From Eledone cirrhosa (lineage: Eukaryota), in the NCBI GenBank assembly GCA_964016885.1, contig CAXHJY010000439.1, positions 1-16,076 of the forward strand: a stretch of 16,076 nt of DNA, read 5' to 3'. The first letter of the stretch is position 1; every line of letters begins with the position of its first letter. This document shows positions 2,093 through 14,232 of the stretch, in pieces. The position numbers and the translations under genes were made by a program. A model generated the notes under the pieces. It was not told the DNA's origin and did not search any database. It saw nothing but the letters and a program-made list of their open reading frames with translations.

Positions 2093-2150
2093 ATATATAT
2101 ATATATAATATATATATATATATATAACATATATATATCTATATATATAT

Positions 2151-4265
2151 CTTGGAAGTGTCACTACGAAAGGCTACTAAATGAGGAGAATAAATGGGAG
2201 AAAGACAGTCTACCCCACATCGACCCAATAGAGGGACCAGCAGTGTAAGTCGAAGGTAGTATAATAAGTAAGGCAGTCAAAGATATGAAGACGGGTAAGG
2301 TGGCTGGGCCTTCGGAAATAGTTGCTGAGATGCTGAAAGCCTCTGGAACGGTGGGACACACCATGTTCACCCGGATAGTAAACCAAGTCATACAGAATGG
2401 GGTTGTTCTGAAGGACTGGCGTAGCAGCATCATCATTAACTGCTACAAGGGTAAAGGAGACGCCCTAGATAGGAGTAACTATAGAGGCATTAAATTAATC
2501 GACCAGGTCATGAAGGTCACGGAAAAAGTAATAGCGCAACTAATCAGAGAGAATCGATCTAGATGAAATGCAGTTCGGGTTTGGCAAAGTACCACAGACG
2601 CTCTTATCATTGTACGACAACTACGGGAGAAGTACCTAGCTAAAAGTAAACCCCTATACTTAGCTTTCGTCGACTTGGCGAAAGCCTTCGACAGAGTCCC
2701 CCGTTCCATTATCTGGTGGTCTCTTAGAAAACTAGGTGTTGATGAATGGCTTGTGAGAGCTATACAAGCCATGTATAAAGAAACAGTCAGCAAGGTTAGA
2801 ATTAACAACGAATATAGTGAAGTGTTTAGCGTAAAAGTTGGTGTTCATCTGGGCTCTGTTCTTAGCCCCCTACTATTTATTATTGCCCTTCAGGCTGTAA
2901 CAGTGGAGTTCAAGACCAGCTGCCCATGGGAACTCCTATACGCAGATGATCTAACGCTCATAGCTGAATCAATGGCCGAGCTAGAGAAGAAATTCCAAAC
3001 ATGGAAGCACGGCCTAGAATCAAAAGGCCTTAAAATTAACCTGGCTAAGACTAAAGTTCTAGTTTGTAGGAAAGAAAATAAGGCGTCGGTCCCTTCCGGG
3101 AAATGGCCATGCTCAGTGTGTAGGAAAGGCGTAGGTAGAAACTCCATTTTATGTCCAAAATGCAAAGTATGGGTGCATAAAAGATGTAATGGGATCATAG
3201 GTAAGCTAACTAAGAACATAGATTTTACATGTGGCCGGTGCTCTGGTGCAATAAGTAGCAGGCAAGTGCCTACAAATACTAGCTCTTTCAATTGCGCAGA
3301 GGGTTCTATAGAAATAGTGGACAGCTTCCGTTACCTGGGTGACAAAATCAGCAGTGGGGGAGGGTGCTCTGAAAGTACAGTAGCTAGAGTCAGAACTGGA
3401 TGGAAAAAGTTCAGAGAGCTTATACCACTATTAGCCGCTAAAGGGTTCTCCCTAAAAATGAAAGGCAGGCTGTATGATGCCTGCATACGAACAGCAATGT
3501 TGCATGGCAGTGAGACCTGGGTATTGTGCGCAGAGGATATACGTAGACAAGAGAGGAACGAAGCTTGCATGCTCCGCCGGATGTGTAATAGTAATATACG
3601 CGAACGGCAAAGCATAAACGAACTAAGGGAAAAATTAGAAATAAGAGGGATCAGATGTTGTTTACTCGAGAGAAGGCTACGTTGGTATGGTCACGTAATG
3701 CGCATGAAAGACGACAGCTGTATAAAAAATGCAGGGCAATAAAGATAGACGGTAGCCACGGAGGAGGCAGACCCAGAAAAACCTGGGACGACCCGATAAA
3801 CTCCGACCTCACACACTTACACCTCTCCAAGACAATGTCACTGGACCGAGATCTTTGGCGGCACTCAGTAATAGAGAAGACCCGCCTTACCTAAATACAA
3901 ACTAAAACCTACTACAGTCAGTAGGTATCTCTAACAAAATACACCCCACCCCATCCACACCGCCCCTTTCAATGTAAAGTTATGTTGGTGCCACAACATC
4001 CAGGCCGAAACAAATGAGATCGTGTAGGTGTCACGACAAAAAAAACACACAGTCCACGCTGTAATGTGGCCGTGTAGGCAACACGGTAAAAACCTCCCAG
4101 TCCCACACTGTAAATGTGGTTGGTGTTAGGAAGGGCATCCAGCTGTAGAAAACCCGCCAGACAGTCCTATGCGAGCAAGACAACCACTCTTGCCTCAAGT
4201 GGGAAAACTCCCGTCCAAACCCATGCAAGCGTGGAACATGGGCGTTAAACGATGATGATGATGAT
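2151..4265 (+). mobile_element. 5'-truncated RTE-clade non-LTR retrotransposon with 3' UTR and (GAT)n tail
   Basis: Degenerate RT ORF at 2153-3894, 3' UTR at 3895-4250 and a (GAT)5 tail at 4251-4265. Flanked by (TA)n on both sides. Confidence 0.93.
2153..3894 (+). pseudogene. Disrupted RTE reverse transcriptase ORF with embedded PHD-type zinc finger
   Basis: Motifs KGKGD..NYRGIKL, MQFGF, FVDLAKAFDRVP, GVHLGSVLSPLLF, YADD (2939-2950), FRYLG, HGSETW, RLRWYGHV and GRPRKTW. In-frame stop at 2246-2248; frameshifts or deletions near 2552-2590 and ~3730. Confidence 0.92.
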
Positions 4266-4382: not shown

Positions 4383-4446
4383 ATATATATATATAATATA
4401 TATATAATATCTATATAATATATAAATATATAATATATATATATAT

Positions 4447-4624
4447 AATTGTTTCTACTTTAGGCACAAGGCCAGCAATTACCCAATGCATTACTGGTAC
4501 TTTATTTTATCGACCCCGTAAGGATGAAAGGCAAAGTCAACCTCGGCAGGATTTGAACTCAGATCGTAAAGGGACGTAACTATGCTGGAAAGCATGGCGC
4601 CCGACCCTCTACCGATACTGCCAA
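4447..4624 (-). mobile_element. tRNA-derived SINE, copy 3 (lacks first ~12 nt)
   Basis: High identity to 527-702. Confidence 0.9.
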
Positions 4625-4817
4625 TATATATAATATATATAATATATATATATAATATATATATATATAATATATATATATATATATAAATGTAGGAGGT
4701 GAGTTTTATTGTAGTACAATAAAGCAATGCAGATATCGGATAAGAAGCACTCTACAGTTTGTAGGACTGGAGTATAAATAATATATAAGATCAAAAGATG
4801 GTTAAAAGGGTTCCATG

Positions 4818-4888: not shown

Positions 4889-5252
4889 GGGAGACATGAT
4901 ATGAGGGTTAAAACACACTTGTGAATAGTGCAGTTTTAAATCAACATATGAAAAGTAGTTTTAGATTGATGTGTGATATTGGGAAAAAAAATGTTGAGGT
5001 GGGGGGGAGGTTGGAAAGGATGAAAAAGAGGAGGAGATGAGAGTAAAAAGTGGAGGGGGAGGAGTATAATGAGGAAGAATGAGATAGGAGGAGAGATGGG
5101 TGATATACAGAGAGAGATAGCTTTTATAACTGAGAAAAAATATATTGTTTTACATAGAGAGGTTGAAAAACCGTTGGAAGATAATATATAAATTAAAAGA
5201 ATTTGAAAATGAACGAAGAGAAAAATAATGTTAAGTTCAGGTTTGTATATTG

Positions 5253-5362
5253 AAGGGTTTAATAATATGTGCGATGAAAAGAAATTGTTAATATGTATTA
5301 AGAATAATATTTAAAGGTTTTTAATAATATGTGCGTTGGAAAGAAATTGTTGATATGTATTA
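5253..5362 (+). repeat. Two imperfect ~50 bp direct repeats, period ~62 bp
   Basis: AAGGGTTTAATAATATGTGCGATGAAAAGAAATTGTTAATATGTATTA versus AAGGTTTTTAATAATATGTGCGTTGGAAAGAAATTGTTGATATGTATTA. Confidence 0.85.
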
Positions 5363-5671: not shown

Positions 5672-5710
5672 TATATATATATATTATATATTATATATAT
5701 ATATATATAA
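5406..5710. repeat. (TA)n array with recurrent TATGTATTA interruptions
   Basis: Direct reading. Confidence 0.95.
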
Positions 5711-6122
5711 AAACAAATAACGAAACGAAATTAAATTTCGTTTCGTTTGTAACTCACTTTTGTATGACTGACGCTTAAACAATTAAGTTAAAAATGAACA
5801 TCCACATATGTATACTGAAATACTAGTATGCATATGAATACACACACGTATACATATGTAGATGTACCGAGTTTTTCACTGGTCACTTTACTGTGAGTGT
5901 CCAGCTATTCTGTATGTAAACACACAGACAAACCGGTTTTTAGAGTCATACTGGTTTTTGAGGAAACACCTTTCCTCTATTCTCCAGAAATCCAGACAAG
6001 GAATATTGAACTAGTTTCGATGTTGTTACATCTCATCAGCAATATTTACCTATCTTCCGGCCTTTCTAGAGAATCGTAAAAGCACATATCGTTATATGCT
6101 TTTTCTATGATTTAACTTAATT

Positions 6123-6126
<4 letters not shown>
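5711..6126 (-). mobile_element. ~415 bp non-coding hammerhead-bearing element (PLE terminus or retrozyme-like)
   Basis: Island between TA arrays containing a canonical HHR (6046-6002) and a terminal 14-bp-arm palindrome. Confidence 0.6.
6002..6046 (-). ncRNA. Minimal type I hammerhead ribozyme
   Basis: AAUAUUG-CUGAUGA-GAUGU(AACA)ACAUC-GAAA-CUAG-UU^CAAUAUU. Perfect 7-bp stem I, 5-bp stem II and palindromic stem III ACUAGU. Predicted cleavage between 6009 and 6008. Confidence 0.92.

Positions 6127-6210
<84 letters not shown>
6127..6210. repeat. Perfect compound microsatellite (TA)n(GA)n
   Basis: Direct reading. Confidence 0.97.
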
Positions 6211-6216
<6 letters not shown>

Positions 6217-6268
6217 AGATGAAATCGAAAATGCAACTGGAGTCTTATTTTTTTTTTAAATATATATA

Positions 6269-6394
6269 TTTATTTGGTTCCTTTACCGGTTTCGCAGTTC
6301 TTCTGCTTTTCAAAAGGTGAGTTGAGATGGAGGGTCTGTGGTTTTTCTTTGGAAAAGCAGAAGAACTGCGAAACCGGTAAAGGAACCAAATAAA
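6269..6394. mobile_element. 126-bp fold-back mini-element with 43-bp perfect inverted repeats
   Basis: 6269-6311 is the exact reverse complement of 6352-6394. After one mismatch 4 more bp pair, leaving a 30-nt spacer. TA repeats flank both sides. Confidence 0.85.
6280..6317 (-). ncRNA. Minimal type I hammerhead ribozyme, U3-A8 core variant
   Basis: CCUU-UUGAAAA-GCAG(AAGAA)CUGC-GAAA-CCGG-UA^AAGG followed by AAUAAA. Stem III is the palindrome ACCGGU. Confidence 0.75.
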
Positions 6395-6403
6395 TATATA
6401 TAT

Positions 6404-6448
<45 letters not shown>

Positions 6449-6711
6449 TATATATATACATATGTATTATATATATATACATATGTATTATATATATACA
6501 TATGTATTATATATATACATATGTATTAAATATATACATATGTATTATATATATACATATATATTATATATATACATATATACTATATATATATATATAT
6601 ATTATGTATATACATATATATTATATATATATTATATATATACATATATATTATATATATATATATATTATATATATATATAAATATTATATATATTATA
6701 TAACGAAGGAA
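6395..6711. repeat. (TA)n array with CATATG interruptions
   Basis: Direct reading. Confidence 0.95.
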
Positions 6712-6794
6712 ATGTGGTAAGGAACCAGGTGGACCATAACGCACCAAAGTACTCAATACTTAGGGTAGTAGAGTGGGTAATAGGAACGCGTAAG

Positions 6795-6888
6795 ACCTCG
6801 ACGGCTGAGCTCAAGCCGTTTCGACGGCTAATTCTTGACTAAATGAAAATTTATCCTGGTATTTGAATAGCCGAGCTTCTCAAGGGGT
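6795..6888 (-). ncRNA. Type I hammerhead ribozyme, U3-A8 core variant
   Basis: ACCCC-UUGAGAA-G(CU)CGGCUAUUC...GAAUUAGCCG(U)C-GAAA-CGGCU(UGAGCUC)AGCCG-UC^GAGGU. Stem III is 6 bp, the cleavage triplet is GUC, and stem I has 4 of 5 pairs. Confidence 0.72.
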
Positions 6889-7392
6889 AATTCCATATAT
6901 GGTCAAAGTGTTTGTCACAAAGTCAAAGTTTGTAGTTGAGACATAATAATTCTATGATGGCAAATTAGTGGGGGGAAGGGGTATCTAAACCTGCCAGTAG
7001 GAGAAAGAGGGAGAGGGGTGGAGTAGACCCATTCATGCGTTGGTAGTGCCGGCTACAGCTGGGCGTGAGGTCAAAGAAGATGCTAGGGTGGGGGAGGGGG
7101 AGGAAGTCGAAACAGTAGGTAGAACAATGAAGGGTAAAAATATAAAGAAAATACTGAGTGTTAAAAAGCGAATAAATGTAAAAAAAAACAACAATTTCTG
7201 GTTACTACGACCTAAGTCTATCGCTATTGCTAGGCTAAATAAATAAATAAGTAAATAAATAAATAAATATAAACTATGTGGGACGGAATAAAAAAGAGAC
7301 CCTTTTAAGAGGTATAAGTACGTATATCATACGGTGACGGGTCAACAAAGGAGGGGCCAAAATACTAAAGAAGCTACCACGAAATAATTAAT

Positions 7393-7455
7393 AATAGTTT
7401 CTACCCCATGCACAAGGCCAGCAACCACCCAGTGCAAAAAAGTAAACTAGTACGA
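7393..7455 (-). mobile_element. Highly diverged relic of the SINE 3' tail
   Basis: AATAGTTTCTACCCCATGCACAAGGCCAGCAACCACCCAGTGC...ACTAGTAC aligns with AATTGTTTCTACTTTAGGCACAAGGCCAGCAATTACCCAATGC..ACTGGTAC. Confidence 0.7.
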
Positions 7456-7991: not shown

Positions 7992-8048
7992 GTAAGTCCT
8001 ACGTAATCTGTGTTTACATGCAGTAACCAGTTCATCTTTCTTGTTTAG
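7992..8048 (+). other. Candidate 57-nt spliceosomal intron in the PLE 5' leader
   Basis: GAG|GTAAGT donor, a GTAAC branch-like motif at ~8023-8027 and a TTCATCTTTCTTGTTTAG| acceptor, 71 nt before the ATG at 8120. Confidence 0.45.
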
Positions 8049-8119
8049 GAATTGGTCCGTCGAAAACAGCATTTGTAAATGTTGTAAATGCTTTCTCATC
8101 CCTCCCCCTTCTTTCACCC

Positions 8120-10861
8120 ATGCCCAGCCTGAGATCCTTTCTCCACCAACTACACACCAGCCTCAAACTTTTCCTCACCCCCTCCTCCCACCCTGCTATC
8201 TCCCCTCTGCCCTTCAACTCTCCTACCTTCTCTTCGCCAAAACCCGGCACTCCAGCCACATCCATTTCCTCAGCCACTACCTCCGCCTCCACCTTATCCC
8301 CCTCGGCTTCCGTCTAAACTTCCACACTTCCCCCGCCACTTCCCCCTCCACGCAACGTATCCTCACCCGATCCTCACGCCTCCTAATGCGCAACACCATC
8401 CGCGCCTCCCGTTCCACCCTCCGCCAACTTGACCACCCTCCTCCGCCTTAACACCACCTGCCACTCCCTCCTCGCCCAAGCCATCCTCTCCTTCATCCAA
8501 AACCTCAACCACGACCTCTTCTCCTTCCTCACCTCCACCAAAGCCCGCAAGCTATACTCACTTCTCCCAACCACACCCATCTACCACCACCCGCCCATCC
8601 CCATGAGCCCACCACTCTCCACCCCTCCCTCGAAACACACCCCTACCCAATCTCCCCCCTCCACCACACCCTCCCTCCCCCCACACCCAAACCCCACCAC
8701 TTGTTGTCACCATACCCCCTGACCTCCCCCTCTCCGCATCTGAGCGCTCACTCCTTAGTAGAGGCCTTCGCTTCATACCCCACACTCCGCACAGCGACGA
8801 GTTCCGCACCCGAACGGAAGTCGAGCGATTCGTGCGTGGCACGAAGCTACAGGCACATTTCGGCCGAACGCCACCGGCTCCGGACGCCCCAGACCCGTTT
8901 CTCGCCCTGGGCCGACGACCATCTTCTTGGACGCCGGCCCAGGGCAATTTAGCACCATGGACGCGTTCGTCGATGCCAGCCGTAGCGCCGTAAATCGTTT
9001 CGACTTCCGCCACCGTTCCAAACGGAATAACATCTCACGGGGCGAACTCCTCGCTCTCCGCTCCCTCCGTAGCCGAGATGACATCGTCATCAAACCGGCG
9101 GACAAGGGAGTCGCTGTGGTGGTGTGGCGCGCGGACCTCTACACGGCCGAAACCCTCAGGCAGCTCCGTAACCCCCTCTTCTACCGCCATCTACTCTCCG
9201 ATCTCACACCCCTCTACCAACAACAAGTTTCCTCCACCATCCAACACCTTGTCTCCTCCTCCCTCCGACCCCCCCACCGCTTCCCACCTCATCGTCCGCA
9301 TCCCCCGCACCCCCACCATCTACTTCCTCACCAAACTCCACAAACCCGACAACCCCGGCCGCCCCATCATCTCCGCTTGCAACTGCCCCACCGAACTCAT
9401 CTCCGCCTTTCTCGACTCAATCCTCGCCCCCCTTGTCACCACCCTCCCCTCCCACATCTCCGACACCAACCATGCCCTGCGCCTTTTCGACTCCTTCACC
9501 TACCCACCCGGCCCACAGCCCTTCCTCTTCACCCTAAACATCAAGTCCCTCTATACCGTCATCCCCCACGCCGACGGCCTACGCGCCCTCAAACACTACC
9601 TCGACCTTCGCCCCTCCCCATTCCCTCCACCCCCACCCTCCTTCGCCTCGTCGAGCTGGTCCTCACCCTCAATTGTTTCTCCTTCTCGGGTGAGTTTTAC
9701 CAACAGGTCACGGGGGTAGCCATGGGTACAAGAATGGGCCCAAACTATGCCAACCTTTTTGTTGGTCATGTTGAGGCCCAAATCTTTGCCCAGTACACAG
9801 GCCCCACGCCCGAAATGTACGGTCGTTACATCGACGACTGTATCGGAGCCACGACCCTCACCCGAGAACAGCTCGACTCCTTTCTCTCCTTCTTCTGCTC
9901 CTTCCACCCCTCCCTCCACTTCACCACCTCTATCTCCACCACCCACGTCCACTTCTTAGACATCTCCGTCGCCTTCTACCCCTCCCACCACTCCCTCGTC
10001 ACCTCTGCCTTCTTCAAACCCACCGACTCCCACTCTTACCTCGACTTCACCTCTTCCCACCCCACTAAACGCTCTATTCCCTACTCCCAACTCCTCAGGA
10101 TCCGCCGCCTCTGTAGCCGAGATGCCGACTTTGAGTCCCAGGCCCTTTCCCTAGTCAGCCATTTCATCCGCAGAGGTTACCCCCCCCCCTCTCTCTCTCG
10201 TCCACACCGCTCTCACCCGCGCCCGTGCTGTCCACCGCTCCACAACCCTCACCCCACGCCACCGCACAGCCACCCACCGTCTCCCCTTCCCCATCACCTA
10301 CCACTCCTCCACTATACCCCACCACCGCACCATCCTCCGCCTCTTCCGACGCCTCCAGTCCGACCTCTCCATCTCCCACATCTTCCCAGCCCCACCACTC
10401 TCCTCCTTCAAACGCGCACGCAATCTCCGCACCCTCCTCGTCCACAGCTCCCTACCCCCCAACCCACGCTCTCTTCTCCCCCCCATTCCTTTCCCTGTTC
10501 TAGGCCCCGCTGCAACACCTGTCCCCACATGACCAACACCACCACCTTCCAGGGTCCCAACGGCCACGCTCTCTCTGTCCGGCATGCCTTCCGCTGCACC
10601 TCCTCCAACCCAGTCGGACAGACTGGTCGTCGCCTGGCGGACAGATTCACTGAGCACCTCCGGGATATTCGTCTCGGTGGTAGTTCCCCCATCGCGCGCC
10701 ACTTTGGTGCCCCTGGACATTCCGCACGCCATCTCACAGTCTGTGGCCTACTCCAATGCCACGGAACACCCGCCAATCTCCTAAGAGTTGAACAACGAAC
10801 CATCTTCATCTTACAGACCCACACTCCCCCCGGCCTGAACTCCCCACCCTTATTCCTTTAG
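8120..10861 (+). pseudogene. Penelope-like element polyprotein (RT + GIY-YIG endonuclease), Neptune-type, multiply frameshifted
   Basis: N-terminal HIHFLSHYLRLHLIPLGF and LLSRGLRFIP. RT motifs IKPADKG, KLHKPDNPGRPIIS, NIKSLYT, GVAMGTRMGPNYANLF, RYIDD (9827-9838), FLDI and KPTD. Linker CSRPRCNTC. Endonuclease motifs VGQTGRRLADRFTEH, ARHF and EQ..IF.L.T..P.GLN. Stop at 10859-10861. Confidence 0.93.
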
Positions 10862-11536
10862 CTTTCGACCGCCCCCCCTCCACCCACACATATCCCCCAC
10901 TAACACAACTAACACACCCCTCCTTTTCACCGCCCACCCCACAACTAACAATACTAACACCTCCACTCCACCCCACATCCGACCACCATTCCCCAACTAA
11001 CATACTAACATCCCTCCCTTCTTCTCATCCCCCCTCCTTATCACATGAACACACCCACCGGCACATATATACACGCGCTCACACTAAACACACACCCTAC
11101 TACCACCACAAACCCTCACCCCCACCCATCCACCCCACCACCCCGCAACTAACATCACTAACACCCCCTGACCCCAAGCACACGAACACACTCACTCTCT
11201 TACACCACCCACCCTACACGCAACTAACATCACTAACACCCCCAACCCTACGCACACGTACACACACACCCACTCTACACATCCTACCACCACTGACCCC
11301 CACTCACACCCGCACTCAACCTTTTCTCCACCTCCTGTATACTAACACCCACTAACACCCCCTTCACCAAACACACACACCAGTACACCACACTCCCTCC
11401 ATCGACCCCACACCCTTCTCTCCCCGCTCCACCCACACCCTTTCTCAAACACTCGCTCATCCCACTAACACCTACTAATACACACACAAACCCCCTCCTC
11501 ACTCCAACTTTCACACCTACCCATCCTCTCCCCCTT

Positions 11537-11643
11537 ACCATTCTACCCTACTGCTGCTATGCCCTCTGACCACCTCCCCGCACACACAGACACACAACAC
11601 ACACTCACCATTTTACCCTACTGCTGCTATGCCCTCTGACCAC
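11537..11643 (+). repeat. 37-bp direct repeat x2, period 70 bp
   Basis: ACCATT(C/T)TACCCTACTGCTGCTATGCCCTCTGACCAC at 11537-11573 and 11607-11643. Confidence 0.92.
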
Positions 11644-12329
11644 AGACACACCACACTCCTCCTGCCTTGACTACTTCCTTTTGCGCGCGCAGTCCACATC
11701 TCCCCTCTTCCGACCAATCTCTTCACGGTTTACACGTATGTGAACCGTGATCCCGGAATCAACCACAATCAAGGATTTTACCAAGCATCCCACCACATCT
11801 TCTTACGGAATCACCTTCATGACTCACCCACACACACACCCCAACAAAATTTTTTTCCCACACGCCACCTACACCCACAACACGCTTAAACACCACACAC
11901 ACACGTGCGTACCACCACATATTTACACATTCAGCCTCCGGATTGCTCTCCCCCCCACCCCTCTATCCACACACGCACACACACTCCGACTACACCCCAC
12001 CCCACACACACCTCTTCCTGAACATGCAACCCCGTTCTTCCCCAAACCTTTGCTTTCACATACACACACGCACACACACACACGTACACCTACACACACA
12101 CACACCACCTTCAGCCCTCCCCGCTCGGACACCCCGTCTCCCTCTCCCCACTCCACCCGCCACCACCCCTACACGCCCCACACCCTTCCACCACCTGTTT
12201 TACCCCATTTTAATTTGATCATGCCTTTATTTTTTTTTTATTTGCACCGTTTCCTCTCACCCCCTTTTTGCTATATGTCTCTCCACCACCCCCAACACAC
12301 CCTTTGAACTCTCTTCCCACACACTTTTC

Positions 12330-12361
12330 ACCCGAAGAAGGCCTTATGCCCGAAACGTCGT
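12330..12361 (+). ncRNA. Degenerate hammerhead motif at the PLE 3' end
   Basis: AC-CCGAAGA-AGGC(CUUAU)GCCC-GAAA-CG-UC^GU. The core has U4>C and stem I is only 2 bp. Confidence 0.55.
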
Positions 12362-12450
12362 TCCCCACCACCACCCCACTCTGAAGAGCGTGAAATTAAT
12401 AAACATTTGTTGTACTGCCTCTCTGTTTTGTTCCCGTTCAATTTTTCATT

Positions 12451-12492: not shown

Positions 12493-12697
12493 CTAATATA
12501 TATGTATATATCTAATATATATATATCTAATATATATGTATATATCTAATACATATATATATATATATAATATATATATATATATAATATATGTATATAT
12601 ATAATATATGTATATATATAATATATGTATATATATAATATATGTATATATAATATATGTATATATATAATGTATATATCTATATATATATATATAT
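12451..12697. repeat. Imperfect (TA)n array
   Basis: Direct reading. Confidence 0.95.
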
Positions 12698-12875
12698 AAT
12701 TGTTTCTACTTTAGGCACAAGGCCAGCAATTACCCAATGCGTTACTGGTACTTTATTTCATCGACCCCGTAAGGATGAAAGGCAAAGTCAACCTCGGCGG
12801 GATTTGAACTCAGATCGTAAAGGGACGTAACTATGCTGGAAAGCATAACGTCCGACCCTCCACCGATACTGCCAA
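12698..12875 (-). mobile_element. tRNA-derived SINE, copy 4 (lacks first ~12 nt)
   Basis: High identity to copy 3, with the same truncation point. Confidence 0.9.
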
Positions 12876-12903
12876 ATATAATATATATATATATATAATA
12901 TAT

Positions 12904-13960: not shown

Positions 13961-14043
13961 ATATATATATATATAATATATATATATATAATATATAATA
14001 TATATATATATATATAATATATATAATATATATATATATAAAT
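12876..14043. repeat. ~1.2 kb imperfect (TA)n array
   Basis: Direct reading. Confidence 0.97.
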
Positions 14044-14232
14044 AATTGTTTCTACCTTTGGCACAAGGCCAGCAATTACCCAGTACATTACTGGTACTTT
14101 ATTTTATCGACCCCGCAAGGATGAAAGGCAAAGTCAACCTCGGCGGGATTTGAACTCAGATCGTAGAGGGACGTAACTATGCTGGAAAGCATGGCGTCCG
14201 ACCCTCTACCGATACTGCCAATCCACCGCCTT
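14044..14232 (-). mobile_element. tRNA-derived SINE, copy 5 (full length)
   Basis: High identity to copy 1; A and B boxes intact. Confidence 0.9.

Follow-up and report, generated by a model that had tools for sequence, protein, structure and literature searches.

Head-to-head pseudo-LTR pairs are the commonest insertion of a hammerhead-bearing Penelope-like element family in Eledone cirrhosa

The stretch of DNA analysed here (the window) comprises 16,076 nucleotides of contig CAXHJY010000439.1 from the Eledone cirrhosa assembly GCA_964016885.1. At positions 6269–6394 it contains a palindrome core of 126 bp whose 43-bp arms match perfectly and can be lengthened by a further 9 bp of TA, an inverted repeat for which the chance expectation in the window is about 1e-18. 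The first-pass annotation had described this repeat correctly, yet had taken the 126 bp as the unit; the whole element is larger, spanning 6209–6404, and its intact relatives measure ~365 bp and are asymmetric. The left arm (6209–6348, minus strand) is a short-type copy of a pseudo-LTR (pLTR) that covers +8 to +149 of the family (numbering begins at the junction edge) and aligns over 142 nt at 95.8% identity with a natural full-length copy at locus L072. The right arm (6347–6404, plus strand) is a remnant covering positions +40 to about +97 (58 nt, 96.6% identity to the same copy), which starts inside stem I of the hammerhead motif, carries a U4>G change at 6351 and stops in an internal TA run. 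Further family sequence was not found in the window beyond 6209–6404. At the junction (6346–6351), the normal palindrome centre is missing and the arms overlap in a 2-nt microhomology, comparable to the junctions at L002, L003 and L008. The left target consists of (TA)n and then an (AG)n run (6126–6219), the right target of a degenerate (TA)n array (6390–6702). The TA repeat at 6260–6268, assigned earlier to the flanks, is internal to the element.

The window copy is likely a secondary deletion product that lost its centre and had its right arm shortened. A deeply shortened arm on one side is found at 214 junctions and, given that about 40 of the 100 listed keep a piece of the standard junction (judged by eye), the centres of such deep junctions are often secondary deletions. 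With the window copy understood as a deletion product, the U4>G variant and the possible stem I of the right arm, both present as first described, become by-products of the deletion junction. The copy is a damaged and probably inert member of its family.

On the minus strand, the left arm has at 6280–6317 a minimal type I hammerhead motif with a U3-A8 core and stems I and II of 4 bp each, exactly as initially read. The features by which minimal type I motifs were defined (C3 or U3, UGAN, G8 or A8 followed by A, GAAA, UH, stems I and II, and a palindromic helix III) are all present in this arm; the right arm departs from them at U4. The motif proceeds from the 5′ strand of stem I (6317–6314) through the core UUGAAAA (6313–6307), stem II (6306–6294), GAAA (6293–6290), CCGG (6289–6286) and UA (6285–6284) to the 3′ strand of stem I (6283–6280), with the palindromic ACCGGU as helix III and a predicted ribozyme cut site between 6284 and 6283. 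Searched with Rfam, the palindrome was not called as a hammerhead and gave only miRNA-hairpin matches below the gathering score. The predicted fold of one arm alone is weak (−6.4 kcal/mol), that of a dimer is better (−20.3 kcal/mol) and that of the full palindrome amounts to −260 kcal/mol. Dimeric variants of the hammerhead of Penelope-like elements (PLEs) have reportedly been described in a 2017 paper. The proposal that a transcript of the palindrome could fold alternatively as long hairpin or as ribozyme does not hold up well: in the minus strand of the window, the ribozyme stems are predicted to cost 52 kcal/mol relative to the hairpin, and the antisense arm is transcribed first. The motif is thus understood as a credible candidate for a PLE hammerhead, predicted to be off inside the palindrome.

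In the family of the window copy (family A), the hammerhead core shows 3 changes in 396 positions compared to 19 in 924 elsewhere, 10 of the latter falling on two subfamily sites, and conservation of the core positions is not clearly above that of other positions. The arms span the ribozyme cut site, and a pile-up of arm starts at this site was not found among the 100 listed (about 5, by eye). An AAUAAA hexamer (6269–6274, minus strand) lies 3′ of the hammerhead motif. Its suggested role as poly(A) signal is without support, considering that the arms continue about 65 and 130 nt beyond it to end in TA with no A-tail and that a sister family (B) lacks the hexamer at the matching place. The family A arm also has a donor-like GTGAG at about +5 and a pyrimidine tract ending in TAG at about +168. 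From their sequence, these sites could delimit an intron in the 5′ UTR, with the hammerhead inside it; a splice joint for such an intron was not seen in the contigs (of unrecorded kind) of five out of six other public runs.

The window contains various other repeats. Within a stretch of ~410 bp between TA arrays (5710–6125), there is on the minus strand a second type I hammerhead with canonical core (5986–6057), matched by Rfam model HH9 with 37.3 bits (E = 2.1e-6), below the gathering score of 52; it is probably the remnant of another PLE or of a retrozyme. A different, frameshifted PLE with 24–37% identity to the family A protein occupies ~8000–12430 on the plus strand, with a hammerhead-like motif near 12331 (core start CCGAAGA) that is followed by AAUAAA and a TA array. 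The LINE remnant at ~2150–4250 (plus strand; RVT_1, E = 3e-22) has an inserted PHD-like finger and is presumably RTE-like. Mostly between TA arrays, a SINE-like repeat of ~190 bp, which we take to resemble an octopus SINE, is found at 521–714, 1956–2089 and 4441–4633, with further copies at 7387–7436, 12692–12884 and 14038–14230. The TA-flanked repeat at 6704–6850, present also at L020 and L043, has a UUCG-capped hairpin and forms head-to-head palindromes elsewhere; it is possibly a further PLE end. An open frame on the minus strand (4936–5310) contains a KPELN stretch that we assume to be like the end of a PLE endonuclease.

A DNA search of the 3.0-Gb genome returned 343 candidates, of which 40 were scored. 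The 38-nt hammerhead motif has 6,009 exact matches in the genome compared to 0 for the reversed control, and a looser pattern, with two other families included, has 23,395 (control, 1). In the usual unit of ~365 bp, a long arm is paired with a short one, and (TA)n terminates both. Past the short TA run, one arm continues outward to about +154 and its partner to about +217, with the effect that the two ends differ by a 63-nt tail; the outer ends of the unit are buried in (TA)n. Among 50 palindromes with a spacer below 200 nt (query-biased and position-ordered samples pooled, duplicates removed), 42 are short+long, 4 short+short and 1 long+long; in the remaining 3, an arm is cut. The first 100 exact matches by position include 26 head-to-head pairs closer than 6 kb, 18 of these closer than 128 bp, together with 2 tail-to-tail and 2 direct pairs (3–5 kb apart) within the same limit. 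Counted by hand, the first 30 exact matches by position represent 22 insertions, and 13 of the 22 are minimal palindromes. The head-to-head junction pattern, with arms within 25 nt, occurs 1,851 times per strand (a few junctions counted twice), as against 3,255 arms that retain native upstream DNA. The minimal inverted pair with a fixed edge is the commonest insertion of the family.

Four junction forms dominate. Each is found in two to three subfamilies, and those that are asymmetric occur either way round. In 16 pairs chosen for one exact arm, the two arms differ at 16 of 1,901 positions and are identical in 10 pairs, compared to a difference of 1.7% between palindromes; of 37 pairs, 34 share both diagnostic sites between their arms. 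Arms of almost the same length are seen in several of the longer pairs (−241/−269, −721/−695 and −19/−23). An A/G difference between arms near the edge was dismissed as query bias, being absent from the position-ordered sample. In contigs from other runs, loose ends were seen at the two outer ends in all five and at the edge in two (X1, X2); read depth in these contigs is unusable as copy number.

That the arms originate from a PLE is virtually certain. The same genome contains a ~5-kb PLE of which each arm is the pseudo-LTR, the unit at L072 measuring 4,979 bp, and some arms extend inward by hundreds of bases (L030, L031, L036). The copy search proposed with the first-pass annotation places the arm at the terminus of a longer element. 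A probe taken from beside one arm proved to be reverse transcriptase (RT) sequence (1,133 candidates, 40 scored); the neighbour of the L022 arm, considered for a time as an unrelated repeat, is the RT region of the parent on the opposite strand. Among 20 loci fetched by the RT probe, 19 have the arm downstream of pieces of the RT–endonuclease ORF and in the same sense. The parent protein shows RVT_1 just under the cut-off (28.7 bits compared to 29.6; E = 1.3e-6), the RT motifs DKG, GTAMG and YLDD, together with a GIY-YIG domain at its C-terminus (PF01541; 27.3 bits, cut-off 22.6) preceded by the linker CX4CxxC. By inspection, the endonuclease has a CCHH arrangement, with CxxC inside the core and two histidines. 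The longest natural ORFs have 775–938 aa, the N-terminal part lying in a different frame in the copies inspected. With E ≤ 1e-20, 799 protein relatives of up to 75% identity were found; the 120 listed are annotated mostly as RT and often as GIY-YIG, and none bears a clade name. The parent matches the Neptune/Nematis type when its linker and (TA)n targeting are compared with the published description.

Partial tandems with a direct arm at the 5′ end occur at 6 of the 20 loci (L062, L065, L067, L070, L072, L074), three of them (L062, L070, L072) showing the order pLTR–ORF–pLTR, and the ORF in tandem copies starts just past the long end. An inverted 5′ arm is present at 7 of the 20 (L060, L065, L068, L069, L071, L074, L079). 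In the ORF-bearing copies at L060, L065, L068, L071 and L079, and likewise at L125, the body ends short and the inverted 5′ arm is long. The three subfamily signatures of the palindromes are found in the ORF-bearing copies, too.

The C of a CAGAT motif is the limit of the junctions, and none of 50 junction matches listed passes this edge by more than 1 nt (by eye). Upstream of the edge is a TATA-like box, at −29 in family A and −30 in family B. Further upstream in both families are CCAAT, E2F-like and E-box motifs. The distance between edge and hammerhead is constant at 41–42 nt in A and B. Since the TATA-like box is spaced as expected of a transcription start, the edge may represent the start of the element RNA. 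Against this, family C is without an edge near its hammerhead. The promoter of Drosophila virilis Penelope is described as internal and TATA-less (PMC2377424); to read the upstream motifs as a promoter may therefore not carry over to this family, and some promoter activity may remain in the arms.

Family B, whose protein is 57% identical to that of A over 275 aa, resembles A in its long and short ends, promoter-like motifs and edge (L130–L163, L170–L183), and at 6 of 6 loci those of its arms that lack upstream DNA begin between about −4 and +11 (by eye). It has GCAA fixed in place of the GAAA core of A (A13>C), thus offering a natural test of the importance of the ribozyme core. Compensatory changes, affecting both sides of one stem II pair and of one stem I pair, distinguish A from B. 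Family C (L184–L207; 299 exact motif copies) has U at N7 and a weak stem I in most copies, or its main subfamily; its 5′ ends form a loose cluster about 270–300 nt upstream of the hammerhead (by eye). Just past the short end, all three families have the motif ACTCGTGT (L072, L155, L203), the region of which folds in A and B as a GUGU/ACAC hairpin reminiscent of the AC-rich stem-loop found where RT starts in the Anolis element.

Based on this collective evidence, we favour, as the more probable course of events, that two pLTR copies were joined head to head by twin priming in (TA)n, likely in a single insertion, with a deletion of the centre following in the window copy. The GIY-YIG endonuclease of the element would cut both strands of (TA)n, and each target end would prime reverse transcription at one internal site, at about +154 or +217. 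With priming at these sites near the RNA 5′ end, both cDNAs would stop at the transcription start and then be joined through a microhomology of 1–2 nt. Use of the downstream pLTR of a more-than-unit RNA for priming would give the longer copies, and the window copy would have been shortened later by central deletion. Run-off and joining would explain why long arms pair with short ones, why the edge is hard and why the same junction forms recur. Templates cleaved by the ribozyme are not expected, because the arms span the cut site. The arms are then better read as copies of the RNA 5′ leader; from the first-pass view of joined PLE 3′ ends, the head-to-head PLE termini stand and the 3′ assignment probably does not. 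The palindrome is without the upstream promoter motifs, and read-through from a host promoter would yield a long hairpin with the ribozyme off; if acting at all, the hammerhead would do so as a dimer in RNAs with a single arm. A precedent exists in vitro for a Poseidon PLE, which is described as nicking and extending each of the two strands of AT-rich DNA, with uncut RNA as template and with initiation at two internal positions of this RNA, the genomic tail lying between them (PMC11167929). The start sites in that description (PMC11167929) are without target homology, whereas both ends here are TA-rich. The long+short rule is broken by 8 of the 50 palindromes, which counts against twin priming.

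The near-equal arms of several longer pairs would suit instead a single cDNA that folds back at its 3′ end, or a self-priming antisense template, with the hairpin being opened by replication. In a rotifer, self-priming has been put forward to explain head-to-head junctions of Penelope (PMC3846280), and the strong likeness of arms within a pair, in sequence and at the diagnostic sites, agrees with it. The same likeness is also expected, however, when both arms are copied from one RNA template, and fold-back cannot produce the short body combined with an inverted arm having the 63-nt tail that is seen at six loci. We therefore regard self-priming as unlikely. Still less probable is that the ~365-bp palindrome is itself a non-autonomous unit, copied by PLE enzymes from read-through RNA and changed in its centre only afterwards. 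Copying of palindromes would also preserve the long+short pattern, it would fit with the minimal palindrome being the commonest form (13/22) and with the predominance of four junction types, and pLTRs are described as mobilisable in trans (PMC3846280). The main junction types, however, each recur in two to three subfamilies, the asymmetric ones both ways round, the ORF-bearing copies share the three subfamily signatures, and the template would have to be the hairpin of −260 kcal/mol predicted stability.

As regards the edge, a site of RNA processing, a stop of the RT or the deletion boundary of once longer palindromes would each be compatible with its constant distance from the hammerhead in A and B, and centre deletions do occur in long palindromes, as the deep junctions indicate. 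Deletions alone do not produce a hard outer limit, though; the edge is a poor splice acceptor, lacking a pyrimidine tract before it, and the canonical spacing of the TATA-like box in two families speaks for a start. An origin of the edge other than transcription start is accordingly considered very unlikely. MITEs are short, palindromic, high in copy number and flanked by TA. The present elements share all of these properties, and the GCAA core of family B could be taken to mean that the likeness to a hammerhead is incidental in a DNA-transposon MITE, or in a foldback element, that duplicates a TA target. This reading is regarded as extremely unlikely, being contradicted by the structure of the parent. 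The ends differ by 63 nt and the centre is variable, the arm belongs to a retroelement encoding RT and GIY-YIG in which it occurs also as direct tandem, transposase was not seen in the family ORFs of the 20 parent loci, and stems I and II have changed in compensatory fashion between families. The distinction from a DNA-transposon MITE drawn in the first-pass annotation, which had named arms matching the termini of a transposase-encoding element as the observation that would overturn it, is thus borne out.

Returning to twin priming, we suggest, with somewhat less than even confidence, that the minimal palindromes are a genomic record of twin priming on one capped RNA, run-off at the cap and end-joining. 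If true, DNA alone would suffice to map the start of transcription and the two RT start sites in any such family, and a single scheme would cover why pLTRs are inverted, why the tail is one-sided and why tandems are needed. The ~2,000 or more perfect hairpins of ~150 bp could then be substrates for editing or for small-RNA silencing directed at the parent. The thousands of young minimal cases with a common edge could serve to separate twin priming from self-priming. For annotation, a warning is due that such pairs resemble MITEs or miRNA hairpins.

The family is of a known PLE kind, in which inverted pLTRs, one-sided tails, the U3-A8 core and opposite-strand hammerhead pairs have already been published. 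EN+ PLEs are described as forming partial tandems, with a 5′-truncated inverted copy and with the tail confined to one end (PMC8557442). Shared with the Neptune/Nematis PLEs of that description are the RT and C-terminal GIY-YIG, the CX2-5CxxC linker and the CCHH motif, as well as the pLTR hammerhead, (TA)n targets and one-sided tail (PMC8557442). The tail, however, has 63 nt in family A compared to 30–40 in the canonical EN+ PLEs and, unlike in these elements as described, the ORF-less inverted pair with a fixed edge is the commonest form here (PMC8557442). In the open-access article texts searched, we found no PLE family whose insertions are predominantly minimal inverted pairs sharing a fixed edge; the supplements of PMC4209133 and PMC8557442 may list the family or relatives. 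The minimal hammerheads described for metazoan PLEs have a U3-A8 core, a G10.1-C11.1 pair and a small palindromic helix III that needs a dimer, all three features of sequence being common to family A, and opposite-strand pairs about 100–700 bp apart are reported (PMC4209133). Like family A, the Poseidon element PAc of Anolis has two internal end points bounding the tail and AT-rich targets, and an AC-rich hairpin lies between the two ends, as it does in families A and B (PMC11167929). The start sites of PAc are inside the ORF, as opposed to TA-rich spots before the ORF here, and its clade is described as being without the linker zinc finger (PMC11167929). The Penelope elements of Adineta vaga likewise have head-to-head inverted pLTRs, palindromic junctions and an optional tail, and TATA and Inr-like motifs in the pLTR; copies are few there and thousands here, and self-priming is the mechanism proposed (PMC3846280). 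Non-LTR retrozymes are likewise short non-coding PLE derivatives with type I hammerheads (bioRxiv 10.64898/2026.07.22.740005). These form head-to-tail tandems in which dimer cleavage is possible (bioRxiv 10.64898/2026.07.22.740005), whereas the pairs of E. cirrhosa are head to head, with the motif sequestered.
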